Shown: positions 43,616-58,677 of the stretch, one piece after another
How positions within the stretch are numbered: position 1 is the stretch's first letter
Layout: the number at the start of each line of letters is the position of its first letter
Assembly: GCA_041611735.1 (NCBI GenBank)
Contig: JBFIML010000006.1
Location: 32,001-96,000 of the forward strand
From: Myxococcota bacterium
GTDB lineage: Bacteria; Myxococcota_A; UBA9160; PR03
DNA: 64,000 nucleotides
Direction of reading: 5' to 3'
Position numbers and translations under genes: made by a program
Notes under the pieces: generated by a model
The model's input: only the letters and a program-made list of their open reading frames with translations
Told to the model about the DNA's origin: nothing
Databases searched by the model: none

Positions 43616-43753
43616 CGCGTTCCTCCATTCGAGGCCAGGCAACATAGCGGAGTCATGACGAGCCGGAGCCGACACAAGGGCACGAGGCCAGATCAGAGGT
43701 TATCCTGGCCAGCAGCCGCTCGGGAAGCATTGGTCCGGCGGCGGGGGGGATGC

Positions 43754-43975
43754 ATGGCGAGACGCGCGAGACGGCGCTTCGGGCCCTCGGCCCTGGATGC
43801 CTGGCTGGTTCCGCGCTGGGCCACGGACGCCCGCGAGCGCGCCGATTCGGAGCTGCACGCCCTCTGGTTCGGGCTTCCCCTCGGCCCCCACGGCGCCCTC
43901 CGCTTCCGCAAGTGGCTCGGCTGGGCGCTCTTCCGGCTGGCAGTGCGCGTGAACCCGGAGGTGGCCGACCTCTAG
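43754..43975 (+). CDS. Small hypothetical protein (73 aa)
   Basis: G-rich RBS-like run before ATG; fills intergenic gap; 4-nt stop overlap with nuclease gene. Confidence 0.45.
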   Translation: MARRARRRFGPSALDAWLVPRWATDARERADSELHALWFGLPLGPHGALRFRKWLGWALFRLAVRVNPEVADL

Positions 43976-44505
43976 GGGCGCCGGGCGTCGGGTGCCCACA
44001 GCCCCCGGATTGCCTGGCGCGCCTCGTCCTCCGCAGCCTCGAACTCCCGGGCCAGGCGACCGCGGCCATAGCGGGTCCAGAAGCGCGACCATCCCGCGCG
44101 CACCATCTCCACGTTGACGTGGGTCTCGCCCACGTACACGTAGGCCAGCAGGCGTCCGTGGTCGTCGCGCTCTGGACGCGGGTCCTCGAAGGCCAGGGTC
44201 ACCGGGCCGGAGCCCACCAGGCGGCGCAGGGCCCGCGTGGCGCTCCCGTAGCCCGGCTCCTGGCGCTCCGGAGTGTCCACCCGAAGCAGCCGCACCCGCT
44301 CGCGCCCCGCACCGCAGTCCACGTCGAGGGTGTCGCCATCGATCACGCGGCGTACCCGACACGGCCCCAGGGCCGCGGCGGCCGCCACGTCGGTCGCCGC
44401 AGGCCCGGGGCCCGGCGCGAGCCCGAGCGGGTCGAGGAGCCCGTCCCGGGCGAGGAGCAGGCCGGCCACCACGAGGAGGGCCACGGCCAGCACTGCCGTG
44501 CGCAT
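43972..44505 (-). CDS. Thermonuclease (SNase-like), membrane-anchored
   Basis: RVIDGDT, VRLLRVDTPE, DDHGRLLAYV, VNVEMVRAGW, RGLW. Confidence 0.93.
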   Translation of the reverse strand: MRTAVLAVALLVVAGLLLARDGLLDPLGLAPGPGPAATDVAAAAALGPCRVRRVIDGDTLDVDCGAGRERVRLLRVDTPERQEPGYGSATRALRRLVGSGPVTLAFEDPRPERDDHGRLLAYVYVGETHVNVEMVRAGWSRFWTRYGRGRLAREFEAAEDEARQAIRGLWAPDARRP

Positions 44506-44510
44506 GCCCG

Positions 44511-45674
44511 CTATCCCCCCGAGGCGGGATCTTCCGCGGCGGCGTCCGGGGGCGTGGGATCCTCGCGGTCCTCCAGCCAGCCTTTCGGCAAGGCCACGCG
44601 CTGTCGCCCCCCCGACTTGCCGCGCGGAACCCGCAGGGCGTGGGGCGGGAAGGGCTCGTCGGGGTCGAGCTGGGTCAGGATGCCCTCGAGCTCCGCCCGG
44701 GTCTCGATCGTCATGAGCTCGCGTCGCAGCCGAGCGCTGCCCGGAAACCCCTTGGTGTACCAGGCCGCGTGCTTGCGGAAGCCGAGCAGCGCCGTGCGTT
44801 CGCCTGCCCAGTGCGTGAGGAGCTCGGCGTGCTCGCGCATCACCTCCGCCACCTCGCCGAGCCGGGGCGGAGCGCTCGGCGGCCGTCCGGCGAACACGTC
44901 CGCCAGATCGCGGAACAGCCAGGGGCGCCCCAGACAGCCCCGGCCGACCACGACGCCGTCGCAGCCCGTGCTGCGCATGAGGCGCAGCGCGTCGTGGGCC
45001 TCCCAGACGTCACCGTTGCCGAGCACCGGCAGTTGCGGGAGGGCCTGCTTCAGCTCGGCGATGGCCTCCCAGCGGGCCGCGCCGTCGTAGAGCTGAGCGG
45101 CGGTGCGGGCGTGAAGGGAGACCGCCGCACAGCCCTCGTCGGCGGCGATGCGGCCTGCGTCCAGGCAGGTCGGGTGGGCGTCGTCCAGCCCGATGCGGAG
45201 CTTGATGGTGATCGGCACGGGTCCGGCGTTGCCTACCGCGGCGCGTAAGATGTCGCGCAGCAGGCGTCGCTTCCAGGGCAGGGCGGCGCCGCCGCCCCGT
45301 CGTGTGACCTTGCGCACGGGGCAGCCGAAGTTGAGATCGACGTGATCGACCTGGCCCTCGCCGACCAGCCGCGCCACCGCCTCGCCCAGCGTCTGCGGAT
45401 CGACGCCGTAGAGCTGGAGGCTGCGTGGCTTCTCGTCCGGGGCGAAGCGGGCCAGCCGCAGGGTCTTGGCGTGCCCTTCCAGGAGCCCGCGGGCGGTGAT
45501 CATCTCGCTCACGTAGAGGGCGGCCCCGAAGCGCCGGCACAGGGTCCGGAAGGGCGCATTGGTGACACCGGCCATGGGAGCCAGGACCACCGGCGGCCAC
45601 ACGCGCAGCGGACCGATCTGGACCGGCCGGAATGCCTCGGGCCGGGCGGGCGGTGCGGCTCGTTGCGGGATCAC
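44511..45674 (-). CDS. dusB: tRNA-dihydrouridine synthase DusB
   Basis: LAPMAGVTN, DLNFGCPVRKV, TIKLRIG, LHARTA, GNGDV, GRGCLGRPW; GTGA overlap with DUF393 gene. Confidence 0.92.
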   Translation of the reverse strand: MIPQRAAPPARPEAFRPVQIGPLRVWPPVVLAPMAGVTNAPFRTLCRRFGAALYVSEMITARGLLEGHAKTLRLARFAPDEKPRSLQLYGVDPQTLGEAVARLVGEGQVDHVDLNFGCPVRKVTRRGGGAALPWKRRLLRDILRAAVGNAGPVPITIKLRIGLDDAHPTCLDAGRIAADEGCAAVSLHARTAAQLYDGAARWEAIAELKQALPQLPVLGNGDVWEAHDALRLMRSTGCDGVVVGRGCLGRPWLFRDLADVFAGRPPSAPPRLGEVAEVMREHAELLTHWAGERTALLGFRKHAAWYTKGFPGSARLRRELMTIETRAELEGILTQLDPDEPFPPHALRVPRGKSGGRQRVALPKGWLEDREDPTPPDAAAEDPASGG

Positions 45675-46093
45675 GACGAGAGGGTAGGGGGCGTGCAGCG
45701 ATCTGCCTCGCACCCGACATGCCGACCCGTCAGGCGCAAGCGATTGCGGGCGAACCAGCCATAGCCGGCGTCGGCCAGTCGCCGGAGGCCCGGCCAGGCG
45801 GTGGGCGCCAGCAGCCAGCCGAGCCCGACGGCGGCGTAGGCGCGTCTGAATACCTCGACACCCTCGATGATCCGGCCGTCTGGCAGGCGCGCGTGGATGC
45901 GTGCCATCAGGGTGGACGGGTCGACGCCGTAGGGGCCGGCGTCGAAGCCCGCGGCGGCCAGGTTCGTGAAGCGGATGCGTCCGCGCCCGCGGTCCAGGCG
46001 TCGGAGCGCCGCGACCTCCCGGGTGCACAGGGGGCAATCGCCGTCGTAGAGGAGCTCGATCTGCCACACGGGCCTTCCGGAACTGCCTGCCAC
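45671..46093 (-). CDS. DUF393 / DCC-family thiol-disulfide oxidoreductase
   Basis: LLYDGDCPLC, YGWFARNR. Confidence 0.9.
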   Translation of the reverse strand: MAGSSGRPVWQIELLYDGDCPLCTREVAALRRLDRGRGRIRFTNLAAAGFDAGPYGVDPSTLMARIHARLPDGRIIEGVEVFRRAYAAVGLGWLLAPTAWPGLRRLADAGYGWFARNRLRLTGRHVGCEADRCTPPTLSS

Positions 46094-46099
46094 CCCCGC

Positions 46100-46144
46100 A
46101 GGCTAGGCAGTCCCCGCCCGCCGGGCAAGAAAATAATCTAGACA
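46100..46144 (-). promoter_or_regulatory. Putative promoter of DUF393-dusB-nuclease operon (-35 TTGCCC, 17 bp, -10 TAGCCT) with adjacent operator half-site TGTCTAGATTATTT
   Basis: -10 lies 6 nt before GTG; AAATAATCTAGACA at 46131-46144 is identical to 52909-52922. Confidence 0.6.
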
Positions 46145-46214
46145 TGCTTGATATCAGCGCATCAGAAAGACGCAGAAATAACTATAAACAATTGATATAT
46201 ATAGATTATAATGA

Positions 46215-46259
46215 TGTCTAAAAAAAATATAGACAATATTCCATCAAGCCGGGTAGACT
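46215..46259 (+). promoter_or_regulatory. Palindromic operator TGTCTA-N9-TAGACA overlapping putative -35 (TAGACA) of the sigma factor promoter (-10 TAGACT, 18-bp spacer)
   Basis: Perfect 6-bp inverted repeat at 46215-46235 in an AT-rich island; same TGTC-N13-GACA geometry as 52902-52922. Confidence 0.65.
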
Positions 46260-46284
46260 ACACCCTCGGAGATCGGAGGGACCC

Positions 46285-47661
46285 ATGTTCAAAGACCCCG
46301 TCGCTGAGCCTTCGCAAGCGGAGGAAACCGCCGTGCAGACCTGGCCGGGCGGAAGCGTGGAGCGGCCGGCCCGGCACGGACGTGCCGCCCCCCGCGCCCT
46401 CGATTGCTACCTGGCCGAGATCCGGGACATTCCGGTCCTGAAACGCGAGCAGGAGGCCGAGCTGGCCCGTCGCATGCGGCAGGCCGAGGTCGAGCTGCGC
46501 CGGGGCCTGCTCGCCCTCCCGGAAGCGGCGCGTGTGCTCGTCGAACGCTGGACGCGGCTGCGCGCGGCGGGACGCGTGACCGGCCCCTGGAGCGCCCGCC
46601 ACCGGGGCGGCGAGCGTGACGCCAGCCCGCACGTGGATCGCGTGCTGACCCACCTCCAGCGAAGCCTCGAGCGCCTCGAGCGTACAGCACGCGGACCGCG
46701 GGCCGCGCCCGAGCGGCGTCGCCTGGCGGCTCGGATCACCCGCACCCTGGGTAACCTGGATGCAACCCCGGAGCTCCTGCAGGAGATCTACCGGGAGCTC
46801 GAGGCGCGGGGTGGCGTGGCCGCCTCGAGTCCCGGCTGGGTGCGTGCCCGGCGCGCCCATGCGGAGCTCAGCGACGCCAAGAACACCTTCATGCGGCACA
46901 ACCTGCGCCTGGTCGTCTCCGTGGCAAAGGGGTTCCGGAGCCTGGGCGTTGAGTTCGAAGATCTGATCGAGGAAGGCAACCTGAGCCTGATGCGGGCCGT
47001 CGAGAAGTTCGATGCCGAGCGCGGCTTCCGCTTCTCGACCTACGCCGTGTGGTGGATCCGTCAGGCCTGCATCCGGGCGCTCCAGAGGACCTCCCGCACC
47101 ATCCGCCTGCCCTCCCACCTGTACGACCGCCTGCTCCGCTACCGGCGCATCCTGGCCCACTGGTCGCGCGACCACCGGGAGGAGCCGAGCCTCGGCGATC
47201 TCGCCGAGGCCCTGGAGGTCGGCGAGGACGAGCTGACGCAGCTGATCCAGGCCGACCGCCGACCGCTCGGTCTCCACGAGCCGGTGGAGGGCACCGAGAA
47301 GGCAAGCGTGGCCGACCGGCTGTCCAGCGGAGCCGTGAGCGCCGACGAGGCCCTGGACGGGCTGCGTCTGCAGGGTGAGATCCCGACCCTCCTGACCCGT
47401 CTCAGCCGCCGGGAACGCCAGGTGCTCGAATGGCGCTTCGGACTCGCTGAGGAGCAGGAGAAGACCCTGCAGGCCATCGGCGATTCCCTGGGCCTTTCGC
47501 GCGAGCGCGTACGCCAGATCGAGCGCGAGGCCCTGGCCAAGCTGCGCCGGCAGGCCGAGCTCAAGGGGCTCCACGACCTGCTGGGGCGGGTCGCGGCTCA
47601 GCCCGCCGGCTCGACGGAGGAGCCGGGCTCGAAGAGCTTGCGGATGCGTCGGAAGCGGTAG
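46285..47661 (+). CDS. RNA polymerase sigma-70 factor, RpoD/RpoS-like (regions 1.2, 2, 3, 4; no region 1.1)
   Basis: YLAEIRDIPVLKREQEAELA, HNLRLVVSVAK, DLIEEGNLSLMRAVEKFD, FSTYAVWWIRQ, RTIRLP, GLSRERVRQIE. Confidence 0.93.
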   Translation: MFKDPVAEPSQAEETAVQTWPGGSVERPARHGRAAPRALDCYLAEIRDIPVLKREQEAELARRMRQAEVELRRGLLALPEAARVLVERWTRLRAAGRVTGPWSARHRGGERDASPHVDRVLTHLQRSLERLERTARGPRAAPERRRLAARITRTLGNLDATPELLQEIYRELEARGGVAASSPGWVRARRAHAELSDAKNTFMRHNLRLVVSVAKGFRSLGVEFEDLIEEGNLSLMRAVEKFDAERGFRFSTYAVWWIRQACIRALQRTSRTIRLPSHLYDRLLRYRRILAHWSRDHREEPSLGDLAEALEVGEDELTQLIQADRRPLGLHEPVEGTEKASVADRLSSGAVSADEALDGLRLQGEIPTLLTRLSRRERQVLEWRFGLAEEQEKTLQAIGDSLGLSRERVRQIEREALAKLRRQAELKGLHDLLGRVAAQPAGSTEEPGSKSLRMRRKR

Positions 47662-48077
47662 TCGAAGATGGCGGCCAGCGCCGCTCGCACCGCGAGGCCG
47701 TGAGCCAGGCTTCCCAGCGGCCCCAGCGGCAGGGCGTAGCGCACCCGGTCTCCCATCAGGACGCCGCCTCCCAAGGCGCGGAAGCTGTGCGTGTGTTGCC
47801 ACGACGCATAGGGACCTCGCTCCTGCTCGTCCACGAACCCGACCGGCGGGGTCCAGCGAGTGATGCGGGTGCGCCAGCGCACCCACATCCCTGCCAGCCG
47901 CAACCGGTACTCGATGCGGGTGTCCTGGGCCATCTCGATGGGAAGGGGCGTCAGGATCCGAAAGCCGAGCCAGGGCGGCGTGATCACCTCCAGATTGGCG
48001 GCATCGGCGAAGAAGGCGAAGACCCGCTCCAGGGGCGCGGCGATCCATTGCTCGCGCTCCAGCACGTGCACCCTCAC
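47598..48077 (-). CDS. SRPBCC (START-like ligand-binding) family protein
   Basis: VFAFFADAANLEVITPPWL, FVDEQERGPYASWQHTHSF, IFDYR. Confidence 0.9.
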   Translation of the reverse strand: MRVHVLEREQWIAAPLERVFAFFADAANLEVITPPWLGFRILTPLPIEMAQDTRIEYRLRLAGMWVRWRTRITRWTPPVGFVDEQERGPYASWQHTHSFRALGGGVLMGDRVRYALPLGPLGSLAHGLAVRAALAAIFDYRFRRIRKLFEPGSSVEPAG

Positions 48078-49093
48078 CGGGTCGATCCGGCCACCGCGTC
48101 GAGCCACGCGTCGATGCGCTCCCATTGCCCGTACAGCCAGTCGATGCGGCCGGGGCGGTCGCGTGGGATCTCCGTGGCCGGGACCCGCCACAGCATGACC
48201 TCGATGCGCCGGCCGACCAGGGCGCCGTGCCAGAGCTCGCCGAAGCTCGCCGTTCCCTCGAAGCCCGCATGGGCCAGGAACAGCACGTCGGCCTCGGGGC
48301 ACGCTTCCAGCAGGGCCAGGGGGCCGCCGAGCCGCGGCGGGAGCACGTGACGCAGCTTCTGCGCGCGGGCAAGCAGCGCCGCGTCGCCCGAGCGTTCCAG
48401 GCGGGTCAGCACCCGCGCGCGCTTGGCCGGGCTGAAGCGCGTCCCCTCCGGATAGATCAGGATGCCCTCGTCCGGGGCGAGATCCTGGCTCACCTGGCGC
48501 AGCGCCTCGATCTCACGCTGGCGGTCGCCCGAGTCGCGGCGTACGAACAGGTGGGGAAGGCGCTGCCCCACCACGTCCAGGCAGGGATCCCAGAGCAGCT
48601 CCCGCTTGATCACGTAGCGCAGCCGCAGGCCCTGGCGGGCCGAGAGGAGCACCGCCGGGAGGATCGTGTCGCCCACGCTGGCGTGCCGCGCGAAGACCAG
48701 GAGCGGACCGCGCCCCACGCTCTCCGCGCCCTTCTGCTGGAACGCGAGTCCGTAGATGCGTCGCACCCCCAGGAAGAGCGCGCCCGCCCAGGCGTGCTGG
48801 AGACGATGGTTCCAGGCCCGGAAGCGCCGGGGATCCGCGCCGGCCCAGATGCCGCTGGCGAGCCACGCACCGAAGGCGGCGATCAGACCCAGGGTTTCGC
48901 AGAGCAGGTAGAAGGTCAGGAAGGCGAGGATCCGGGTGGTGGGAAGCGGCCGGCGCCGCGCCAGGTCAACCGCCAGGGCCGTCGGGAGCAGCACGGGCAG
49001 GCCGAGCAGGGCGAGCGCGGTCAAGGCGGTGTAGCCGGGCACCGTGATCGCGCGCCGTCCCCAGCGGGCGGCGAGCGACTCGTCGCGCGGCAA
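48074..49093 (-). CDS. PlsC-like glycerolipid acyltransferase
   Basis: RHASVGD (HxxxxD), RYVIKREL, IYPEGTRF; N-terminal TM helices; start uncertain (49093-49105). Confidence 0.85.
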   Translation of the reverse strand: MPRDESLAARWGRRAITVPGYTALTALALLGLPVLLPTALAVDLARRRPLPTTRILAFLTFYLLCETLGLIAAFGAWLASGIWAGADPRRFRAWNHRLQHAWAGALFLGVRRIYGLAFQQKGAESVGRGPLLVFARHASVGDTILPAVLLSARQGLRLRYVIKRELLWDPCLDVVGQRLPHLFVRRDSGDRQREIEALRQVSQDLAPDEGILIYPEGTRFSPAKRARVLTRLERSGDAALLARAQKLRHVLPPRLGGPLALLEACPEADVLFLAHAGFEGTASFGELWHGALVGRRIEVMLWRVPATEIPRDRPGRIDWLYGQWERIDAWLDAVAGSTR

Positions 49094-49101
49094 CGGACCC
49101 T

Positions 49102-50505
49102 TCAGGGCGATCCTCCCTCCCGGCGCAGCGGGTCCGGCGCCTCCCGCCCCGCCCGGCGATCCATCACGGCCTCGCGGATGCGCTGGTGACGGACGCGATC
49201 GATGGGATAGGCGAGGGCGAGGCCGATTGCAATCAGGTTGCATAGGCACGGCACCAGCGCGTAGAGGATGCGCAGCGTGAGGCGGACCCCGGGCGTCTGC
49301 TCCACGTTCGGCTCGTAGCCGGCAGCGCCCAGCACGGCCAGGGCCGCCCCCACGCCCAGGGCGGCTGCGAGCTTGCGGGCGATGGACCAGACGCCGATGT
49401 ACTGCCCCTCGCGCCGCCGGCCGGTGATCAGCTCGTCGTAGTCGATCACGTCCGCCTGCATCGATGAGGGGATGGCGAGGGTGCCCCCCAGGCCCAGCCC
49501 GGAGAGCACCACCAGCACGGCGTAGGCACCCTCGTCCCCCGGGCCCAGGAAGAAGACGCCCAGGAAGGCGCAGGTGTTGACTGCCATGGCGGTGAGCCAG
49601 GCGGGCTTCTTGCCCAGGCGGTGCGCGAGTCCGACCCACGCCGGGAGCAGCGCGATTCCGGTCACGAAGTAGAGCAGCAGGAACAGGTCGGCGCGCTTCG
49701 ACTCGAGCACGTACTCCACGTAGTACAGGATCAACGTAGCGGGGAGATTGCTGCCGAAGGCGGACACGGTGTAGGAGCTCAGCAGGATGCCGAAGGGCCG
49801 GTTGCGCAGCAGCGTGCGCAACTGGGGCCAGGGCGAGGCGCTGCCCGGGCGGCTCGCAAGGCTGCGCTCGGGCACGGCCATCACGCACCAGGCGCACGCC
49901 AGCAGCAGGAGCGGTGCGTAGAGCAGGGCGACGCGCAGGAACTTGGCGCGTTCTCCCGCGGCGTCGTCGGTCAGCCCGAAGGTCCAGGCCACTGCGGCCG
50001 GCGAGCTGGCGGCCACCAGGGTTCCGGCCAGGAGCGCCCCGTCCCTCCAGGCCATCAGCGCGGTGCGGGCGTCGTAGTCGAAGGTGATCTCGGGGCCGAG
50101 CGACTCGTAGGGGACGGTGACGGCGGTCCAGAACAGGAACAGTGCGAATACGGACCCGCCGAACCAGACCGCGGCCCATGGCGGCCCCGTCTCGGGAGGG
50201 ATGAAGAGCAGCAGGATCGCCAGGGCCAGGGGCGGCGTGGCGCCCGCCATCCAGGGACGGCGGCGCCCGAAGCGGGTGCGGGTGGCGTCGGAGAAGGCGC
50301 CGATCAACGGGTCCGTGACCGCGTCGAAGATCCGCACCGCCAGTAGCAGCGAGCCGATGGTCCCGATCCCGACGCCTACCACGTCGGTGTAGAACTTGGG
50401 CAGGTAGACGTAGACGGGGATGCCCACCACGGCCAGGGCAAAGGCCGGGGCCGCGTAGGCCATGCGCCGGCCCGTGGGGACGCGCTCCGGATCCGCGGGG
50501 TTCAC
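49102..50505 (-). CDS. MFS transporter, GPH/MelB (MFS_2) family
   Basis: RIFDAVTDPLIGAFSD, RFGRRRPW, SMQADVIDYDE, RREGQY; about 12 TM helices. Confidence 0.92.
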   Translation of the reverse strand: MNPADPERVPTGRRMAYAAPAFALAVVGIPVYVYLPKFYTDVVGVGIGTIGSLLLAVRIFDAVTDPLIGAFSDATRTRFGRRRPWMAGATPPLALAILLLFIPPETGPPWAAVWFGGSVFALFLFWTAVTVPYESLGPEITFDYDARTALMAWRDGALLAGTLVAASSPAAVAWTFGLTDDAAGERAKFLRVALLYAPLLLLACAWCVMAVPERSLASRPGSASPWPQLRTLLRNRPFGILLSSYTVSAFGSNLPATLILYYVEYVLESKRADLFLLLYFVTGIALLPAWVGLAHRLGKKPAWLTAMAVNTCAFLGVFFLGPGDEGAYAVLVVLSGLGLGGTLAIPSSMQADVIDYDELITGRRREGQYIGVWSIARKLAAALGVGAALAVLGAAGYEPNVEQTPGVRLTLRILYALVPCLCNLIAIGLALAYPIDRVRHQRIREAVMDRRAGREAPDPLRREGGSP

Positions 50506-50588
50506 GCGCTGGCCGCGGGACGCAGGGCGGGGATAGCATGACGGCGGGGCACGCGGCGCAGCACCACCGGCCGCACGGGGAGTGAGGC

Positions 50589-50945
50589 ATGCCGCACGTG
50601 GTGATCGAGGGCTCCGTGGACCCGGGGCGCCTCTTCGAAGAGCTCGAGCCCGTCCACGAGGCTGGCTCGCACGGCGTACGCCGCACCGGTGAAATCTTCC
50701 TGAACCGGCGGCGGGACACGTCGCTGCTCGAGGCGGTGGTGGTGGAGCGCGGCTTGCGCCAGCGCTTCTTCGTGCTGATCTCCCGCAAGGGGGCAGGCGT
50801 GACCGTGAGGCTCGAACCGTCCACGCAGCCCGAGAAGACCGAGGGCGTGAAGCGGCTGCTGGCGGCGGTGGGCCGCCGGGTCCGCACCCATTTCCCGGAC
50901 ACCCGCTACGGACAAACCAACCTCGCCGACTGTCTCGACGCCTGA
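50589..50945 (+). CDS. Hypothetical protein (118 aa)
   Basis: GGGAG/GAGG RBS before ATG; protein-like composition. Confidence 0.65.
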   Translation: MPHVVIEGSVDPGRLFEELEPVHEAGSHGVRRTGEIFLNRRRDTSLLEAVVVERGLRQRFFVLISRKGAGVTVRLEPSTQPEKTEGVKRLLAAVGRRVRTHFPDTRYGQTNLADCLDA

Positions 50946-50962
50946 GGCGCGGGGCAGCCGGA

Positions 50963-51967
50963 TCAGGCGGGCGGGCGCGGCCTGGGGGCGGGTCGCCGCG
51001 GCCGTGCCAGGCGCGTGGCCCGCAGGACGGTCGCGATCCCCGCCAGGCGCTCGCACGCGTCCCACAAGCGTTCGCGGTCCTCCGGGACCTCGCGCGTGAA
51101 GGGCAGCCGGTGGGTGGATGCCGGGGCGCGATCGAACCAGAAGGCCCCACTCTGCAGCGCAGGCCTGGCCGCCGCGGCCAGCCAGACCACCGTGTCCGCC
51201 CCCTGTTCGGCGCAGCGCAGGATGGAGCGCGTCACCCGCCAGAAGCCGGGGAGCGAGCTTCGCACCGCAGGGGTGTCGGCCCAGCCCGGATGCATGGCGT
51301 GCACGACGACGCCAGCCCGGCGCAGGCGCTCGGCGAGCAACTCGGCCAGGACCACCTGCATGCGCTTGGTCTGGGCGTAGGCGCGCGTTCCATCGAAGCG
51401 GCGCTGCTTCCAGTCGAGGTCCGCCAGGGACAGGCGCTGGGTGTACATGCCGCCGGAGGAGACGAAGATCACCCGCGCATGACCGGACGCACGCAGCCGC
51501 GGCTCGAGGAGCCGGGTCAGCAGGAAGGGGCCGACCACGTGGGTCGCGAGCGTGAGCTCGAGGCCCTCCGGGGTCTCCTGCCGCTCGGCGGGCAGCACTC
51601 CGGCGTTGTGGATGAGGACGTCGACGCGCGGCTCGGGAAAGTCCGCCACGAAGGCCCGTACGGAGGCGAGGCTCGACACATCGAGCCGGGCGAGCCGCAC
51701 CTCCCGGTTGCCGGTCTCTGCACGTAGCGAGGCCTCCGCCTCCCGGCCGCGTGCCTCGTTCCGGCACAGCAGCCACACCCGCGCCCCGCGCTGGGCGAGG
51801 GCGCGGGCGGAGGCCCGCCCGATGCCGGAGTTCGCGCCCGTCACCAGACACACCCGGCCGGCGAGATTCACGTCCAGGTCCTCGCTGCGAAAGCCGCGCG
51901 CGTGACGCCGGAAACCGCTCCGGTCGAAGGAGAAGACGATGGAGGCGTCGAGGAGGCGACCGATCAC
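50963..51967 (-). CDS. SDR-family oxidoreductase (DHRS12-like)
   Basis: TGANSGIG, IHNAG, VSSGGMY, YAQTK, MHPGWADTP; ATGA overlap with carH. Confidence 0.93.
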   Translation of the reverse strand: MIGRLLDASIVFSFDRSGFRRHARGFRSEDLDVNLAGRVCLVTGANSGIGRASARALAQRGARVWLLCRNEARGREAEASLRAETGNREVRLARLDVSSLASVRAFVADFPEPRVDVLIHNAGVLPAERQETPEGLELTLATHVVGPFLLTRLLEPRLRASGHARVIFVSSGGMYTQRLSLADLDWKQRRFDGTRAYAQTKRMQVVLAELLAERLRRAGVVVHAMHPGWADTPAVRSSLPGFWRVTRSILRCAEQGADTVVWLAAAARPALQSGAFWFDRAPASTHRLPFTREVPEDRERLWDACERLAGIATVLRATRLARPRRPAPRPRPPA

Positions 51968-52872
51968 GATGCCCGCCTTGCGCGCACGCCGAGCAGGGCC
52001 ACCCGCTGCTCGAGCTCCTCGATGGAGTGCAGCCGCCGTACTCCCGTCGGGAGCGCCAGGGCCTCGCTGGCCCTCCCGCCCACCCAGACCTCCACGGCCG
52101 CGGGCAGCCCGGCGCGCAGGGTGCGCAGCGCGCGTTCGCCCTCGCGCTTGGAGAGCTGGACCACTCCCAGGGCGACGGCATCCGCTTCGAGGGTCTCCGC
52201 GGCGTGCAGCAATTCCGCCGGGGGCAGATCGGGCCCCAGATAGATGGCGTGAGCGCCCGACTCCGTGGCCGCCACCGCACCCATCAAGACCCCCAGCTCG
52301 TGCCGCTCTCCGGGTGGCGTCGTGAACACGACGACGGGCGCTCCGAGCCCGCCGCGCCGGCGCAGGGAGGCACCGAGCAGGCTTCGCACCAGGCTGCTCG
52401 CCAGGTGTTCGGAGGCCATGCAGAGCCGGCCGCCCTGCCAGCGCTCCCCGATCTCGCGCAGCAGCGGAGCCGCCACCGACGCCGCAAAGCGGAGCGGCCC
52501 CAGGGCCGCGAGCTGGAGCGCCAGCAGGCGCTCGGCCTCGGCCGCGTCGAGCCGCTCGACGACGGCGAGGATCGCCGGGATCGGAGCCTCGGGCGGGGCG
52601 GCATGGGCGGCGACGCGGCGCTCGAGCTCCGCATCGTCCAGGCGTGCCGCCTCGGAGATCGAGTGGCCCGCCTCGGTCGCTGCGCGCAGCCGGCGCAAGC
52701 GCCTGACGTCCGCCTCCCGATAGCGGCGCGTGCCGCCCGGGGTGCGCAGCGGCCGTATCGCCTGGTAGCGTCTCTCCCAGGCGCGCAGCACGTGGGGCGA
52801 GAGCCCGGTCAGGCGCGAGACCGCCCCCAGGGAGTAGGTGGGCTCCGGTTTGGCCTCGACCCTGCGACCCAT
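51964..52872 (-). CDS. carH: MerR-family adenosylcobalamin-dependent photoreceptor/repressor (CarH/LitR)
   Basis: MerR HTH (LRAWERRY..RTPGGTRRY); W-x9-EH (RWQGGRLCMASEH); B12-binding ERHELG, YLGPDLP, VWVGG. Confidence 0.9.
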   Translation of the reverse strand: MGRRVEAKPEPTYSLGAVSRLTGLSPHVLRAWERRYQAIRPLRTPGGTRRYREADVRRLRRLRAATEAGHSISEAARLDDAELERRVAAHAAPPEAPIPAILAVVERLDAAEAERLLALQLAALGPLRFAASVAAPLLREIGERWQGGRLCMASEHLASSLVRSLLGASLRRRGGLGAPVVVFTTPPGERHELGVLMGAVAATESGAHAIYLGPDLPPAELLHAAETLEADAVALGVVQLSKREGERALRTLRAGLPAAVEVWVGGRASEALALPTGVRRLHSIEELEQRVALLGVRARRAS

Positions 52873-52878
52873 GGCCGG

Positions 52879-52955
52879 AGCTTCGAGGCTGGCGGGGCAG
52901 TTGTCAATAAATAATCTAGACAGCGGTTGACGGGCCCCGGGCCGGGTGCGAACCT
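52879..52955. promoter_or_regulatory. Divergent carH/phr promoter region with TGTC-N13-GACA operator (52902-52922)
   Basis: Minus strand TTGACA-17-GAAGCT-6-ATG; plus strand TTGACG-17-GAACCT; short AT-rich core TTGTCAATAAATAATCTAGACA. Confidence 0.65.
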
Positions 52956-53004
52956 CCCGGCGAAGGCGCTCCCCCCGGCGGACAGGTCCTCCCGACGAGG
53001 TGTC

Positions 53005-54411
53005 ATGCGCGCGCTCCACTGGTTCCGTAGCGACCTGCGCCTGCGCGACAACGTGGCCCTCTCGGCTGCGGCGGAGGCCGCCGACGAGCTGATCCCCGCC
53101 TTCGTCTTCGACGAGCGCCTGCTGGCTGGGGGCGTCGGTGCGCCCCGGCTGCGCTTCCTGCTGGGCAGCCTGGAGCGCCTGGCGGCGGACCTGGAGGAGC
53201 GCGGCCAGCGCCTCGTCGTGCGGCGCGGCGACCCGCGTCGCGAGATCCCTGCGCTCCTCGAGGAGACGGGCGCCGAGCTCCTCACCCTGAACCGCGACTA
53301 CGGGCCGTATGCGCGCCGGCGCGACGAGGCCGTGCGCATCGCGGCGGAGAAGCGCGGCGTGCGGGTGCACGACTGCAAGGATCGCGTCGTCTACGAGAGC
53401 CACGAGATCCGCACCCGCTCCGGCGATGCGTACCAGGTCTATACTCCCTACCGACGCGCCTGGATGGCGCGCTGGCGCGAGGATCCGCAGGAGCCGCTCG
53501 GGCCGCTCCGACTCCCGCCGCACCCGGAGAAGCTGCGCGCCGGTCGGCTGCCCAGCGAGCAGGAGCTCGGGGTGGCGGACGACGGGGTCGAGATCCCGAC
53601 GCCCGGGGAGTCGGCGGCCCGGCGCAGGCTGGATCGCTTCCTCGAGGTCGGGATCGCCGACTATGCCCGCCGCCGCGACCTCCCGGCCGAGGACGGCACG
53701 TCGCGGCTCTCCCCGTACCTGCGGCTCGGTGTGGTCTCCATCCGCATGTGCCTGGCCGCGGCGCTCGAGCGGGGGCGCGAGGATCGCAAGGCGACCGATG
53801 GCGTGCGAACCTGGGTGGACGAGCTCGTATGGCGCGAGTTCTATCACGCGATCCTCGCCGAGCATCCCCACGTGCTGAGGCGCGCCTTCAAGTCCGACTT
53901 CGATCGGGTGCGCTGGAACGACGACGAGCAAGGCTTCCGGGCCTGGTGTGAGGGGCGCACCGGGTATCCGTTCGTGGACGCCGCCATGCGCCAGTTGGCC
54001 AAGACCGGCTGGATGCACAACCGGGCGCGCATGGCGGTGGCCAGCTTCCTGACCAAGGACCTGTTGGTGGACTGGCGTCGCGGGGAGAGGTTCTTCATGC
54101 AGCGCCTGGTGGACGGCGACCCGGCCTCCAACAATGGCGGCTGGCAGTGGGCGGCCTCCACGGGGACGGATGCGCAGCCGTACTTCCGCATCTTCAATCC
54201 CGTATCGCAGGGGGAGCGCTTCGACCCGGACGGGCGCTACGTGCGCCGCTTCGTGCCGGAGCTCGAGGGGGTCCCGGACCGCTTCGTGCAACGGCCCTGG
54301 CAGGCGTCCGAACCACCCCGGGACTATCCGGCGCCGATCGTGGACCACGCCGAGCGTCGGATTCTGGCGCTGCGCCGCTACGAGGCCGCGCGCCAGGGCA
54401 GGCAGGGGTGA
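53005..54411 (+). CDS. phrB: Deoxyribodipyrimidine (CPD) photolyase, class I
   Basis: WFRSDLRLRDN, TSRLSPYLRLG, ELVWREFY, GWMHNRARM, NNGGWQWAASTG, FRIFNP. Confidence 0.96.
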   Translation: MRALHWFRSDLRLRDNVALSAAAEAADELIPAFVFDERLLAGGVGAPRLRFLLGSLERLAADLEERGQRLVVRRGDPRREIPALLEETGAELLTLNRDYGPYARRRDEAVRIAAEKRGVRVHDCKDRVVYESHEIRTRSGDAYQVYTPYRRAWMARWREDPQEPLGPLRLPPHPEKLRAGRLPSEQELGVADDGVEIPTPGESAARRRLDRFLEVGIADYARRRDLPAEDGTSRLSPYLRLGVVSIRMCLAAALERGREDRKATDGVRTWVDELVWREFYHAILAEHPHVLRRAFKSDFDRVRWNDDEQGFRAWCEGRTGYPFVDAAMRQLAKTGWMHNRARMAVASFLTKDLLVDWRRGERFFMQRLVDGDPASNNGGWQWAASTGTDAQPYFRIFNPVSQGERFDPDGRYVRRFVPELEGVPDRFVQRPWQASEPPRDYPAPIVDHAERRILALRRYEAARQGRQG

Positions 54412-55418
54412 CGGCCGGGCCCGGGGGCGACGGCGGTTCGGCTCCCGGGGCGCGCCCGCTCTGGCACGACGATGCCCCGATCCGGGTCGGCATCTCCACC
54501 TGTCTGCTCGGTCGCAAAGTGCGTTACGACGGCGGGCACAAGCGCGACCGTTTCCTCACCGACGTGCTGGGCCCCTACGTGGAATGGGTGCCGGTGTGCC
54601 CGGAGGTGGAGCTCGGTCTGGGGATCCCTCGCGAGCCGATCCGGCTGGTGCGCGCGGGTGGCGAAGTCCGGCTCGTGGCCGAGCGCAGCGCACGCGACCA
54701 CACCCGCGCCATGCAGAGCTGGGCCGGTCGCCGGGTGCGCGAGCTCGAGAAGCTCGAGCTGTGCGGCTACGTGCTGAAGAAGGGGTCTCCGAGCTGCGGC
54801 ATGGAGCGGGTGCGCGTCTACCAGGAGGGCGGCATGCCGCAACGCGACGGACGCGGCCTGTTCGCGGACGTCCTGATCGGCCACCTGACGAGCCTGCCCG
54901 TGGAGGAGGAGGGGCGACTCCACGATCCCCGGCTGCGCGAGAATTTCGTGGAGCGGGTCTTCGCGTACCGGCGCCTGCGGTCGTTGCTCGCCGCTCGCTG
55001 GAGCGTCGGCTCGCTGGTGACCTTCCACACGGCTCACAAGCTCCAGCTCATGGCGCACTCGCCCGAGGACTACCGGCGCCTGGGCCGGGTCGTGGCGGAG
55101 GCCCGCCGGCTGCCGCGCCGCCAGCTGGCGGAACGCTATGGCGGGGGGTTCATGCGCGCCCTGGCCCGGACCGCGACGGTGCGTCGCAACGTGAACGTCC
55201 TCCAGCACGTGCTGGGACACTTCAAGAAGCGGCTGGACCGGGACGCGCGCGCGGAGGTCCTCCAGCTGATCGAGGACTATCGCCGCGGGCTCGTCCCGCT
55301 CGTCGTCCCCCTCACGCTGATCCGCCACCACGTCCGCCGGCTCGACGTCGACTACCTGGCGGGCCAGGTCTTCCTGGATCCCCACCCCAAGGAGATGATG
55401 CTCCGGAACCACGTCTGA
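54408..55418 (+). CDS. ybgA: YbgA-family DUF523(TudS)-DUF1722 fusion; RudS-like putative tRNA 4-thiouridine desulfidase
   Basis: CLLGRKVRYDGGH, VCPEVELGLGIPRE, KKGSPSCG, VEEEGRL, FHTAHKLQLMAH; GTGA overlap with phr. Confidence 0.9.
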   Translation: MTAGPGGDGGSAPGARPLWHDDAPIRVGISTCLLGRKVRYDGGHKRDRFLTDVLGPYVEWVPVCPEVELGLGIPREPIRLVRAGGEVRLVAERSARDHTRAMQSWAGRRVRELEKLELCGYVLKKGSPSCGMERVRVYQEGGMPQRDGRGLFADVLIGHLTSLPVEEEGRLHDPRLRENFVERVFAYRRLRSLLAARWSVGSLVTFHTAHKLQLMAHSPEDYRRLGRVVAEARRLPRRQLAERYGGGFMRALARTATVRRNVNVLQHVLGHFKKRLDRDARAEVLQLIEDYRRGLVPLVVPLTLIRHHVRRLDVDYLAGQVFLDPHPKEMMLRNHV

Positions 55419-55502
55419 GGGGGGGGCGGGACCCATCGACCTCCCGGGCCGCGTCGTTCCTCGGGAAGTGGATGGGTCCGGGGGTCCCCCCTTGAGTCTC
55501 GA

Positions 55503-55520
55503 ATTGGAACGTGTTCTAAT
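55503..55520. promoter_or_regulatory. KstR-type palindromic operator ATTGGAACGTGTTCTAAT overlapping putative -10 of the P450 gene
   Basis: 55505-55518 TGGAACGTGTTCTA matches TnnAACnnGTTnnA exactly; TTGAGT-17-TCTAAT promoter-like arrangement. Confidence 0.7.
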
Positions 55521-55544
55521 CCTGATCGGTCTGCCGAGGAGTCC

Positions 55545-56759
55545 ATGGCGCTCGACGTCCTCGATCCCGAGCTCTATCGGGGCGATCCCCACCCGGACTA
55601 CGCCTGGCTGCGCAAGAACGATCCGATCCACTGGGACGCGCGTCGCGAGCTCTGGATCCTGACCCGCTACGAGCACGTGGTGCACGTCTCGAAGCACCCG
55701 CGCCTGTTCTGCTCCGGGCGTGGGGTGCGGCCCGGCAATCCCACGCCGCTCTCGATCGTGACCATGGACGAGCCACGCCACACCCAGCTGCGGCGCCTCG
55801 TGAACCGCGGCTTCACCCCTCGCATGGTCGGGCTCCTGCAGCCCCGCATCGAGGCCATCGTCGCCGAGAGCCTGGCCCGGGTGCTGTCGCGCGGGCAGTG
55901 CGACTTCGTGGCCGACGTGGCGGTGGTGCTCCCGCTGCTGGTGATCGCCGAGATGCTCGGCATCCGCAGCGAGGATCGCGAGCGCTTCTGGCACTGGTCC
56001 GACCACATGATCGCGGCCGACGGCCACTACGACGATCCCGAGGTGATGGCCCGCGCCAGCCGGGCCTATGGGGAATACGCCGCCTACCTGAAGGACGTGT
56101 TCGCGGACCGGCGACGACGGCCGCAAGAGGACCTGGTGAGCGTGCTCGTGAATGCGAGTGACGACGGGCTTCTCTCCACCAACGAGGACACGCTGACCGA
56201 CGACGAGCTCGTGATGTTCATGACGCTGCTCCTCGTGGCGGGCAACGAGACCACCCGCAACGCCATCAGCGGCGGGATGATCGCCCTGCTCGAGGATCCC
56301 GAGGAGCGCGCCAAGCTGTGCGCGCGGCCGGAGCTGCTGGCGAGCGCGGTGGAAGAGATCCTGCGCTGGACCTCTCCCGTGATCAACTTCATGCGGACCG
56401 CCACCCAGGACACGAGCCTGGGCGAGAAGCCCATCCGGGCCGGCCAGCGCGTGATGCTCTTCTACGCCTCGGCCAACCGCGACGAGGTGGTCTTCCCGGA
56501 GGCGGACCGCTTCCGGGTGGACCGGCAGCCGAACCCCCACGTGGCCTTCGGGATCGGCAACCACTTCTGCCTCGGAGCAAACCTGGCGCGCCTCGAGATC
56601 CGCAAGATGTTCGAGGCGCTGATCCCGCATCTCGAGGACGTGCGCCTCGCCCCCGGTGGGCAGCCGGTCTACGCGCCATCGTCCTTCGTGCGGGGCGTGG
56701 AGAGCCTGCCCATCGTGTTCGCGTCCGGCGCCGCGCGCGCTCAGGGCTCCGTGCCGTAG
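55545..56759 (+). CDS. Cytochrome P450, CYP142/CYP125-like (sterol side-chain oxidase type)
   Basis: AGNETTR, EEILRW, FGIGNHFCLGANLAR heme motif; overall resemblance to CYP142 by eye. Confidence 0.9.
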   Translation: MALDVLDPELYRGDPHPDYAWLRKNDPIHWDARRELWILTRYEHVVHVSKHPRLFCSGRGVRPGNPTPLSIVTMDEPRHTQLRRLVNRGFTPRMVGLLQPRIEAIVAESLARVLSRGQCDFVADVAVVLPLLVIAEMLGIRSEDRERFWHWSDHMIAADGHYDDPEVMARASRAYGEYAAYLKDVFADRRRRPQEDLVSVLVNASDDGLLSTNEDTLTDDELVMFMTLLLVAGNETTRNAISGGMIALLEDPEERAKLCARPELLASAVEEILRWTSPVINFMRTATQDTSLGEKPIRAGQRVMLFYASANRDEVVFPEADRFRVDRQPNPHVAFGIGNHFCLGANLARLEIRKMFEALIPHLEDVRLAPGGQPVYAPSSFVRGVESLPIVFASGAARAQGSVP

Positions 56760-57346
56760 TCCGAGGCGATGCGCCGGACCAGCTCCTGGATGCGTGCGCG
56801 GCGGGCCGCGTCCGCTTCCTTGCGCTCCAGGGACGCCACGATTCGTCCCAGGCGGCCGGCGGTGCTTGCGCTCTCGAGCTTCTCCCCGCTGGCCGCGTCC
56901 TCGAAGAAGTCCAGGATCGCGTCGCGCAGGGCAGCGTCCTGCACCTCGCCGTAGGCCCGCCACGGCACCGCCAACAGCTTCGCGGCGCGGAAGGAGTTGG
57001 TCAGGTAGTGGCGACCGCCCCGCATCACCTGGGCGCGGTAGTTGAGCTCGAAGTAGGCGATCGCCAGCGCGTTCAGGGCGTCGTAGTTGCGCCGGTCCAC
57101 GGGGTGCCGCTCCAGGTCGTCGCGCAGGGAGCGCAGGTCCAGGTCCTGGGTCTTCTCGGGATCCAGCACCACGGCGAAGAACGCCTGGTGGCGGGGCCGC
57201 ACGTCGTCCAGGACGCGGTCGCGGCCGGAGACGTCCCAGTGGCTGCCGCTCCCTCCCAGGCGGTAGCGCATGGGTTCCGGAGCGGTGGCGCAGGCCCCGC
57301 CGCTCGCGAGCGCGGCCGCGAGCAGGGGAGCGACGAGCCGGCGCAT
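56741..57346 (-). CDS. Hypothetical lipoprotein
   Basis: GGAGG RBS; signal peptide ending GGAC; helical mature region. Confidence 0.65.
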   Translation of the reverse strand: MRRLVAPLLAAALASGGACATAPEPMRYRLGGSGSHWDVSGRDRVLDDVRPRHQAFFAVVLDPEKTQDLDLRSLRDDLERHPVDRRNYDALNALAIAYFELNYRAQVMRGGRHYLTNSFRAAKLLAVPWRAYGEVQDAALRDAILDFFEDAASGEKLESASTAGRLGRIVASLERKEADAARRARIQELVRRIASDYGTEP

Positions 57347-57372
57347 GCGGTCCTCCTGCCTCCCTGCCAGGT

Positions 57373-58677
57373 CTACGTTCCGTCCGGGCGGTCGGTTGCG
57401 GAGGTGTCCCCGCGCCGGCTGCGCGGGGCGACCGGCGCCCTCGTCCCGCCGTCGTCGCGCTGCCAGACCTCGAGGAGCGCGCGCAGCCGCGCGGGCTCGT
57501 TGCAGGACGGATCCCGGATCACGCACTCCGTGAGCCAGTCGAGGGCGCGTCCCACGAGCGGTCCGGGCCGGCAGCCCAGGATCGCCATCACCGCCCGGCC
57601 GTCGAGAGCCAGGTCGTGACGGCGCAGGGCGAGCGCGCCCGCCTGGCGGATCCGTACCACGGCCTGCCGCAGGGCGGCGACCCGCGCCGCCGTCGCCCGG
57701 GCTTCCGTCTGCGGGAGCGATGCCGCCTTCACCTCGGCCTCGCGCAGGGCCAGCAGCGCCGCCAGGTCCTCCTCGCCCGTGCGCCGCAGCAGGCGCCGCA
57801 CCGCCACGGGGTTGGCGGGGTCGACGCCCCGCTCCACGGGGTGGAGCGCGACGAGCCGCGCCACCCGCCGCAGGGTGCGGCGCGGGAAGCGCAGGCGTCC
57901 GAGAATCGCCTCCACGCGGCGCCCCCGGAGCCAGCCGGCCAGGCGCAGGCCCAGGTCGGGCGGCAGGGCCGTCACCACGGCCGCCGCGTCGGGCTCTGCC
58001 TCCGCGCCCAGGATCGCAGCCTCGAGCCCCGTCCTTCGCAGCAGTGCGAGGCCCGCCGCCGGATCCGGCGCCAGGAGCAGCGCCTCGAGCTCGCGCCGGA
58101 TGCGCTCCCGGGACACGCCGGCCAGTGCGGGTGCGCAGTCCGCCAGGGCACGCTCCAGGGCCGGCTCCGCCCGCGCGCCGAGGACGGCCACCAGGCGGGC
58201 AGCGCGCACGGCGCGCAGGGGATCCTCGCCGAGGCGCTCCCGCGCAGCGCCCACGGCGCGCAGCCGCCCCTCGCGCAGGTCCGCGACGCCCTGGTGCGGA
58301 TCGATCACGCGCTCGGAGACCGGGTCCCACGCCAGGGCGTTCACGGTGTAGTCCCGGTGGGCCAGGTCGTCGTGCAGGCTCGGCCCGGCCCGGAAGCTAG
58401 TGACGTCCACGGGGCCGCTGGCGGTGGGCACCATCACGGTGCCGTGGTGCAGGCCGATCGGCACGGAGCGCGGGAACACGGCGAGCACCGCCTCGGGCAC
58501 CGCCGAAGTGGCCACGTCGAAGTCCTCCACCGGCACGCCGCGCAGCAGGTCGCGCACGCACCCCCCCACCAGGAACGCATCGTGGCCGTTCGTCCGGAGC
58601 CGGGCGAGCAGCTCCCGCACCGGGGCGGGAATCGCCGCCGACGCCAGCGAGCGGTCGCTGGTCCGTGAAACCGTCAC
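57373..58677 (-). CDS. cca: Class II tRNA nucleotidyltransferase (probable CC-adding type)
   Basis: LVGGCVRDLL, DFDVAT, RDYTVNALA, EDPLR, SRERIRREL. Confidence 0.88.
   Translation of the reverse strand: MTVSRTSDRSLASAAIPAPVRELLARLRTNGHDAFLVGGCVRDLLRGVPVEDFDVATSAVPEAVLAVFPRSVPIGLHHGTVMVPTASGPVDVTSFRAGPSLHDDLAHRDYTVNALAWDPVSERVIDPHQGVADLREGRLRAVGAARERLGEDPLRAVRAARLVAVLGARAEPALERALADCAPALAGVSRERIRRELEALLLAPDPAAGLALLRRTGLEAAILGAEAEPDAAAVVTALPPDLGLRLAGWLRGRRVEAILGRLRFPRRTLRRVARLVALHPVERGVDPANPVAVRRLLRRTGEEDLAALLALREAEVKAASLPQTEARATAARVAALRQAVVRIRQAGALALRRHDLALDGRAVMAILGCRPGPLVGRALDWLTECVIRDPSCNEPARLRALLEVWQRDDGGTRAPVAPRSRRGDTSATDRPDGT

Follow-up and report, generated by a model that had tools for sequence, protein, structure and literature searches.

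A rare inverted repeat, predicted to be a CarH operator, is shared by carH and a primary-like sigma factor gene in a Myxococcota bacterium

Introduction

Can a B12-dependent photoreceptor of the CarH family control the gene of a sigma-70 factor that resembles the primary sigma factors, and through which DNA element would it do so? This question is raised by a 64,000-nucleotide stretch of DNA from a Myxococcota bacterium, corresponding to contig C6:32001-96000 of a draft genome (label G000; 4,086,371 bases in 118 contigs, 95% complete). We refer to the whole stretch as the window, and positions given without a contig prefix are those of the window. It carries carH and a sigma-70 family gene, which are convergent, 4.3 kb apart and each provided with one copy of the same AT-rich inverted repeat. 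To our knowledge, the B12-photoreceptor circuits described so far have carotenoid genes as their end point or run through small extracytoplasmic function (ECF) sigma factors. From sequence comparisons, we consider it probable that both inverted repeats are operators of the only full-length CarH in the genome, and that they gate a two-tier light switch via the sigma factor. A preliminary description of the window had proposed such a cascade, with CarH repressing four promoters; here its elements are examined one after the other.

Two palindromic sites in a GC-rich genome

The GC content is 72.7% in the window and has the same value in the genome. The only 22-bp segments of the window with a GC content of 32% or less lie at 46124-46156, 46164-46249 and 52896-52928, in agreement with the AT-rich spots of the preliminary description. 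The identical 14-mer AAATAATCTAGACA is found at 46131-46144 and 52909-52922, and the inverted repeat TGTC-N13-GACA at 46215-46235 and 52902-52922, all exactly where they had been reported. There are exactly two copies of AAATAATCTAGACA in the 4,086,371 bases of the genome, and it is the only repeated 14-mer in the window with at least 60% AT.

Taken alone, TGTC-N13-GACA is a weak signal, with two copies in the window and at least two in 7 of 100 shuffles of it. The fuller palindrome TGTCWA-N9-TWGACA, which was defined post hoc from sites already known, also occurs twice in the window and is absent from all 100 shuffles. A scan of the entire genome returns 46215-46235 and 52902-52922 only, and the reversed control pattern gives no match. 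With up to two mismatches allowed there are nine matches in the genome; only the two sites of the window are free of mismatches, and no other match has a spacer as AT-rich as theirs. Copies at C58:169 (one mismatch) and C40:22340 were not counted as sites, as the former is at a gene-poor, low-GC contig end and the latter has a GC-rich spacer. Within contig C58:1-1000, no open reading frame with the codon bias of the genome is found within 800 bp of the C58:169 copy.

The palindrome at 46215-46235 (TGTCTA-N9-TAGACA) lies 50 bp before the start of the sigma gene, of which it is the predicted CarH operator. The palindrome at 52902-52922 (TGTCAA-N9-TAGACA) is conserved upstream of carH and is predicted to serve the divergent promoters of carH and the photolyase gene. 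A half-site copy at 46123-46144 (plus strand) has, as read by eye, the 14-mer AAATAATCTAGACA as its extended right half, a degenerate left arm, GGGCAA, and a spacer of 10 between the arms; it could possibly be a weak or remnant operator beside the promoter of the DUF393 gene.

Contigs of another study bridge both AT-rich spots, one spanning 45600-48927 with 0 differences and one spanning 52797-53057 with 1 difference, which indicates that the assembly is sound at these places. Metagenome runs from marine and sediment habitats contain DNA of the window. At 52918, a contig of a third study has an A to C substitution, which changes TAGACA to TCGACA; the position is a degenerate one within the half-site and the variant is also used by relatives. 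The same contig has an A to G substitution at 52952. An Rfam search of 43000-58000 at E <= 1 found no family, so the AT-rich spacer is neither a known RNA nor a B12 riboswitch. A LexA/SOS-box reading of the arms was set aside because they do not appear to resemble LexA motifs.

CarH and the palindrome upstream of its gene

CarH is encoded at 51964-52872 on the minus strand and is a CarH-type MerR/B12 photoreceptor-repressor of 302 aa. It consists of an N-terminal MerR-type winged-helix domain (Pfam MerR_1, 62.6 bits, residues 13-80), a four-helix bundle (Pfam B12-binding_2, 31.6 bits) and a Rossmann B12-binding domain (Pfam B12-binding), the score of which, 30.3 bits, is slightly below the cut-off of 32.1 bits. 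Identity to CarH of T. thermophilus (5C8D) is modest (123.5 bits). The W-x9-EH motif is kept, with ERWQGGRLCMASEH aligning to EAWHRGEIGVAEEH of 5C8D, and so is the histidine that forms the lower axial ligand (ExHxxG; GERHELG vs GERHEIG of 5C8D). The genome also carries a gene for a PduO-type adenosyltransferase, and adenosylcobalamin (AdoCbl) can thus be made. Phytoene synthase (crtB, PF00494) was not found in the 95% complete genome and there was no CrtI-family match at the cut-off; for this reason CarH of the window is apparently not a carotenoid regulator.

For comparison we used 193 genomes of the order to which the window belongs, 106 of which encode CarH. A total of 125 carH loci were examined, and 117 carH starts had enough upstream DNA to be assessable. 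Only strict palindromes were counted at carH and sigma genes, with degenerate sites kept outside the counts. The palindrome TGTNNA-N8/9-TNNACA, with at most one arm mismatch, is found within 260 bp upstream of 49 of the 117 assessable carH starts, at a density of 1.37 per kb upstream of carH vs 0.052 per kb in the remainder of the loci. In the family of the window, the carH-proximal arm reads TTGACA toward carH in 12 of 12 carH-phr loci (L034-L045). The presence of the palindrome just upstream of carH across this family and beyond is the signature of autoregulation, and the view that it behaves as an autoregulatory operator of carH is supported by these comparisons. In some families (L052, L054, L061, L130, L120, L125) the arms are separated by 8 instead of 9 bases. 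Sites of this kind are mostly tied to a carH copy adjoining a sigma gene, and they may mark a second CarH subtype.

As had been noted at the outset, the sites overlap -35-like hexamers: in 5-6 of the 6 bases, their arms agree with the consensus for a -35. On the minus strand, the left arm of 52902-52922 is a perfect TTGACA, followed, as read by eye, by 17 nt, GAAGCT and, 6 nt further on, the ATG of carH. Should TTGACA-17-GAAGCT be the promoter of carH, its mRNA would begin at the ATG or only a few bases from it and would be leaderless. The spacing is equally tight in relatives of family f10.

The palindrome could instead be bound by another regulator, with CarH as a co-regulated target. Both this genome and relatives encode a second MerR-type protein whose N-terminus is CarH-like, in some cases near carH. 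In G000 it is a MerR-only paralogue of 214 aa (contig C5:31493-32137), with a DNA-binding domain 49% identical to that of CarH. Similar short MerR paralogues are found near carH in G026 and G037. We nevertheless regard this explanation as very unlikely. The site tracks carH in 49 loci, while the paralogue has no B12 domain and has its own, different inverted repeat, GTTCACT-N12-AGTGAAC, directly before its start. The half-sites, moreover, fit the published CarH/LitR element: in the available portions of the literature, the CarH recognition element is given as TnnACA, defined by footprinting and overlapping the -35 (PMC9304148), and Pseudomonas LitR sites as T(G/A)TACA/TGTACA (PMC9758184).

A non-housekeeping, primary-like sigma factor

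The sigma-70 family gene is located at 46285-47661 on the plus strand, and its product of 458 aa was characterized by Pfam and NCBIfam profiles, alignment to PDB sequences and phylogenetic trees. Regions 1.2 (33.8 bits), 2 (79.5 bits) and 4 (61.1 bits) score over their Pfam cut-offs. Region 3 is divergent, at 17.9 bits against a cut-off of 25.3, yet it covers positions 4-76 of the 78 in the profile. With phmmer, residues 197-422 align unbroken to SigA 8GZG, residues 197-433 align with primary sigma factors in the PDB, and, judging from the alignment, region 4.2 retains the RERxRQIE segment found in primary sigmas. Regions 1.2 and 2 are separated by about 130 aa of lineage-specific sequence. 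ECF sigmas have regions 2 and 4 only, in about 170-220 aa, whereas this protein has region 1.2 and a linker of region-3 length, and so is not of the ECF type.

The best NCBIfam matches are to RpoD/SigA and RpoS models, led by TIGR02997, the cyanobacterial RpoD/SigA subfamily, with 252.9 bits against a cut-off of 384.5. The curated cut-offs for RpoD, RpoS, SigB and cyanobacterial RpoD are all missed, and only the sigma-70 superfamily model is passed. Nor is it the housekeeping (group 1) sigma of the genome: a different paralogue (contig C26, from 6061) is found in the short-branch clade common to all families, while the sigma of the window is on a long-branched clade. Among 5.8 billion proteins, a single cluster is more than 60% identical to it, followed by about 20 full-length metagenomic proteins at 38-47%; the next matches are group-2 “nonessential primary-like” sigmas, which match its C-terminal half. 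As judged by its sequence, the protein is a non-housekeeping, primary-like, non-ECF sigma-70 factor.

The promoter of the sigma gene is predicted, by consensus match only, at 46230-46259 on the plus strand, with a -35 of TAGACA that is the right arm of the operator, a spacer of 18 nt and a -10 of TAGACT. It is retained in G003 as TAGACA-17-TACACT. An alternative is that the motif serves chiefly as a promoter element for recognition by this very sigma factor, in which case sigma, carH and phr would make up a self-amplifying sigma regulon and CarH would act at some of the promoters only. The shared 14-mer is indeed an AT-rich tract followed by TAGACA, in equal orientation at both loci, and the RERxRQIE segment in region 4.2 makes a TTGACA-like -35 plausible. 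Streptomyces sigma-LitS, too, drives downstream light promoters, according to the available part of PMC11519972. However, a promoter element needs no two-fold symmetry, and genomes that lack this sigma subclade, as most of family f1 do, still have the carH-phr palindrome. As an explanation of the motif we find it highly improbable; it is also compatible with operators of CarH, and not exclusive of them.

The link between carH and the sigma gene in related genomes

The palindrome is present before the sigma gene not only in G000 but also in G003, G165 and G027, and in each of these four genomes carH has a copy too. The sigma of G003 is 67% identical to that of the window (64% by other alignments), is its sister in the tree and has matching synteny; the G003 site, TGTCTAAATATTTTATAGACA, is about 50 bp before the ATG of the sigma gene. 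G165 has one copy before the sigma gene and one before carH. In G027, 2.7 Mb of a single contig separate the two genes, whose sites have 16 consecutive bases in common.

In other relatives the two genes themselves are neighbors. Of the 125 loci, 33 have a sigma homologue encoded within 1.6 kb of carH; they represent 33 of the 106 genomes with CarH and come from six families other than that of the window. The pair is divergent in 21 cases, carH is followed by the sigma gene on the same strand in nine, and three are arranged otherwise. A strict palindrome is found in, beside or ahead of the pair in 15 of the 33, one of these being GC-rich and doubtful. The layout common in family f10 has one palindrome, whose arms read TTGACA in the direction of the sigma gene and TTTACA in that of carH, and amine-oxidase-like, phr and ybgA genes downstream. 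In L052, L054 and L130, carH and the sigma gene are co-directional and the palindrome lies between them, a position that does not call for a divergent promoter.

The linked sigmas also tend to group in phylogenetic analyses. A careful tree of 39 rows places six linked sigmas in one clade (support 91/81), together with two unlinked rows. A quick tree with 67 rows puts every one of the 35 rows of CarH-linked sigmas (35/35) into one clade of 54 rows (SH-aLRT, Shimodaira-Hasegawa-like approximate likelihood ratio test, 96), a linked share that is biased by the 29 rows added because they are neighbors of carH. Outside it are the housekeeping-like clade (G000 contig C26) and the three other paralogues of G000. 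Three rows duplicating genes were dropped from the trees, and from the quick tree also one betaproteobacterial row. On these comparative grounds, the prediction that the sigma gene is a target of CarH is supported.

There is very little chance, in our judgment, that the palindromes are just back-to-back -35 hexamers of divergent housekeeping promoters, alike by promoter consensus and bound by no repressor: both sites of the window do lie between divergent genes, their arms come as close to the -35 consensus as stated above and TTGACA is common (128 copies in the genome), but the fixed AT-rich spacer of 9 bp (or 8 bp) is conserved across families, the palindrome is also found in the co-directional pairs of L052, L054 and L130, it occurs just twice among all divergent promoters of the 4.09 Mb genome, and in G000 and G027 the copies at the sigma gene and at carH have 14-16 bases in common, the spacer among them.

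Besides the bias of the quick tree, a number of observations count against CarH as the regulator acting at both sites. The score of the window protein with the NCBIfam CarH model NF052513, which is by far its best-scoring family, is 156.4 bits, below the cut-off of 400 bits. No strict palindrome is found at 68 of the 117 carH starts, nor at 18 of the 33 carH-sigma pairs, and a consensus promoter scan of the carH-phr spacer found none. The linked genomes are kin and not independent, 19 of the 33 being from family f10 and 18 of these 19 from one genus. In most genera of the window's family, the carH-phr operator is kept while the nearest sigma is of another subclade, without a palindrome or a link to carH. 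Members of the sigma's own subclade in G036/L005 and at L064, a locus of a metagenome-assembled genome, have neither carH nearby nor the palindrome. The operator geometry differs as well: the CarH operators of Thermus, Bacillus and Cystobacter have 3-5 tandem 11-bp direct repeats, nnnnTnnACAn, as given in the available text of PMC9304148, vs two inverted TnnACA hexamers 9 bp apart here. By eye, neither strand of either window site has a second TnnACA at an 11-bp step.

The proposed light switch

In the circuit that we favor, with both palindromes as CarH operators, AdoCbl-bound CarH would occupy TGTCWA-N9-TAGACA in the dark. For the carH operon (carH and the short-chain dehydrogenase, MFS, acyltransferase and SRPBCC genes), phr-ybgA and the sigma gene, the arms are predicted to form or overlap the -35 elements, and the half-site copy may bring the DUF393-dus-nuclease unit under CarH as well. 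In the light, photolysis of the Co-C bond would free CarH from these sites, and all of the units would be transcribed. Light thus most likely switches on the sigma factor, which would then load onto core RNA polymerase and activate further genes as a second tier. Given that the genome has only two good sites, a broader response to light would be reached only by way of the sigma factor.

The DUF393 unit and a possible fourth promoter

The gene assignments on which the preliminary description relied (carH, phr-ybgA, the sigma factor and DUF393-dusB-nuclease) are all borne out by Pfam and NCBIfam profile searches. Divergent from the sigma gene and separated from it by a spacer of 215 bp is a gene for a DCC1-like thiol-disulfide oxidoreductase (DUF393; 45671-46069, minus strand; Pfam DCC1-like, 103.5 bits). 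It is followed on the same strand by a tRNA dihydrouridine synthase gene, dus (44511-45674, with an uncertain start in 45602-45713; Pfam Dus, 298.7 bits), and by the last gene of the unit, which encodes an SNase-like nuclease (43972-44505; Pfam SNase, 56.1 bits). Whether CarH acts at four promoters, as had been suggested, depends on this unit: comparative genomics agrees with palindromes for carH, phr and the sigma gene, and the DUF393 unit has a half-site or degenerate copy only. G003 has a TAGAC half-site at the place that matches the 46123-46144 copy. On this weaker sequence evidence, control of the DUF393-dus-nuclease unit by CarH is plausible.

The DCC1-like gene itself is nonetheless a conserved neighbor of the sigma gene and recurs as third member beside carH and sigma. 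DCC1-like homologues are found in 33 of the 125 carH loci and in 23 of the 33 sigma-linked loci; partner loci of this kind are 45671-46069 of the window, L116 and L149-L175. The DCC gene is directly 3' of the sigma gene on the same strand in 16 of the 23, with gaps of 29-131 bp between matched stretches, and is divergent from the carH-sigma pair in the other 7. In G036, where no CarH was found, a DCC gene is located upstream of the sigma gene, a layout shared with the window. The 34 DCC1-like homologues all have an unchanged DxxCPLC motif, and residues D9, C12, P13, C15, H59 and C120 are invariant among them. A predicted complex of the sigma factor with the DCC1-like protein has a score of 0.00, which counts neither way. 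An extension of the circuit, which we think unlikely, is a three-part module of carH, the primary-like sigma and the DCC1-like CxxC protein across the order, in which CarH would gate transcription of the sigma gene by light. The DCC protein, its gene being co-transcribed with the sigma gene or divergent from it, would adjust the activity of the sigma factor to photo-oxidative thiol stress, much as a redox-sensitive anti-sigma factor or co-factor does.

Other genes around the two sites

Downstream of carH, all on its strand, are four genes of the predicted operon. The first encodes a short-chain dehydrogenase (SDR; 50963-51967; Pfam adh_short), which is directly 3' of carH with a 4-base overlap; an SDR gene also follows carH in G003 (locus L034). 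Next are an MFS_2 transporter (49102-50463; Pfam MFS_2, 315.8 bits), a PlsC-type acyltransferase (48074-49093, start uncertain; Pfam Acyltransferase, 42 bits) and an SRPBCC/polyketide-cyclase-like protein (47598-48302, start uncertain; Pfam Polyketide_cyc2, 29.9 bits), which ends the run.

On the other side of a 132-bp spacer, the plus strand carries the deoxyribodipyrimidine photolyase gene phr (53005-54411; Pfam DNA_photolyase and FAD_binding_7, and NCBIfam). A YbgA-like gene with a 2-thiouracil desulfurase domain and DUF1722 (54408-55418; Pfam) overlaps the stop codon of phr, and the phr-ybgA order is conserved in many relatives. A P450 gene comes after the ybgA-like gene. A weaker third low-GC spot between these last two genes, at 55491-55526, is visible only at 30 bp and GC <= 40%; it contains a short palindrome, GAACGTGTTC, without a CarH-type half-site.

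Comparison with known light circuits

The closest precedent is LitR-LitS of Streptomyces, in which, as described in the available portion of PMC11519972, adenosyl-B12-bound LitR represses the bidirectional litR/litS promoters in the dark and sigma-LitS drives crtE in the light. An AdoB12-dependent MerR-type photoreceptor placed over its own gene and a sigma gene would be common to both systems, and the predicted circuit logic is the same, as far as that portion of the paper goes (PMC11519972). The divergent sigma/carH layout around one shared regulatory region is also seen in the 21 divergent relatives, and not in the window, where 4.3 kb separate the genes and either one has a predicted operator copy to itself. 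LitS is a two-domain ECF sigma, in contrast to the 458 aa of the window sigma with its regions 1.2, 2 and 4 and divergent region 3. The operator of the window is an inverted repeat. The output of LitR-LitS is carotenoid genes, whereas G000 has no crtB found and no crtI at the cut-off, and a DCC1-like gene is an added partner in the window's order. The predicted circuit would differ from LitR-LitS in its primary-like sigma, inverted-repeat operator, non-carotenoid outputs and DCC1-like partner.

The preliminary description was aware of no account of such an arrangement. In the literature searched in full text (including PMC9304148, PMC9758184, PMC12627116 and PMC11519972, as far as these sources were available), we found no pairing of CarH or LitR with a non-ECF sigma, in a search that did not take in the LitR regulons of Burkholderia and Pseudomonas putida. 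The claim of novelty holds to that extent, and not for the circuit logic, which is that of LitR-LitS (available text of PMC11519972).

CarH of the window shares with the CarH proteins of Thermus, Bacillus megaterium, Myxococcus and Cystobacter the winged helix-turn-helix, four-helix bundle and Rossmann B12 domains, the W-x9-EH motif and the histidine ligand. Also common, as predicted for the window, are a TnnACA element over the -35 (PMC9304148) and the inclusion of the regulator's own gene in its regulon. The predicted targets differ, being a photolyase, lipid and transport genes and a sigma factor, not crt genes.

CarQ of Myxococcus xanthus is an ECF sigma that is freed from the anti-sigma CarR by singlet oxygen, and it acts upstream of and in parallel to CarH/CarA, not under the control of CarH. 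The window sigma, by contrast, is primary-like and under a predicted CarH operator. What the two would have in common is light control in Myxococcota via an alternative sigma factor (available parts of PMC9304148 and PMC8156234). Cyanobacterial group 2 sigmas, such as SigB and SigD of Synechocystis, are primary-like and non-essential and are encoded by genes induced by high light (PMC8875361, in the excerpts available). The window sigma resembles them in being primary-like, with a cyanobacterial subfamily as its best NCBIfam model and a gene predicted to be induced by light. It differs from them in falling below the TIGR02997 cut-off and in its extra stretch of about 130 aa, which separates region 1.2 from region 2. 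We know of no B12 photoreceptor that controls SigB or SigD of cyanobacteria.

Implications

The window is informative because its two genes are separated, so that the operator alone, a defined 21-bp element, carries the link between them. An inverted-repeat operator would add a CarH binding mode beyond that of tandem direct repeats, and the compact operator together with the sigma factor could serve as a light-switch part. The recurrence of the carH-sigma link in 33 of 106 CarH-bearing genomes, in several layouts, suggests that it is not a one-off. With a full-length primary-like sigma as the candidate second tier, in a lineage in which no carotenoid genes were found, light could redirect RNA polymerase far more broadly than in the known cases. 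If the three-part module with the DCC1-like protein were also true, light and oxidation together would reprogramme transcription genome-wide in non-pigmented marine bacteria.

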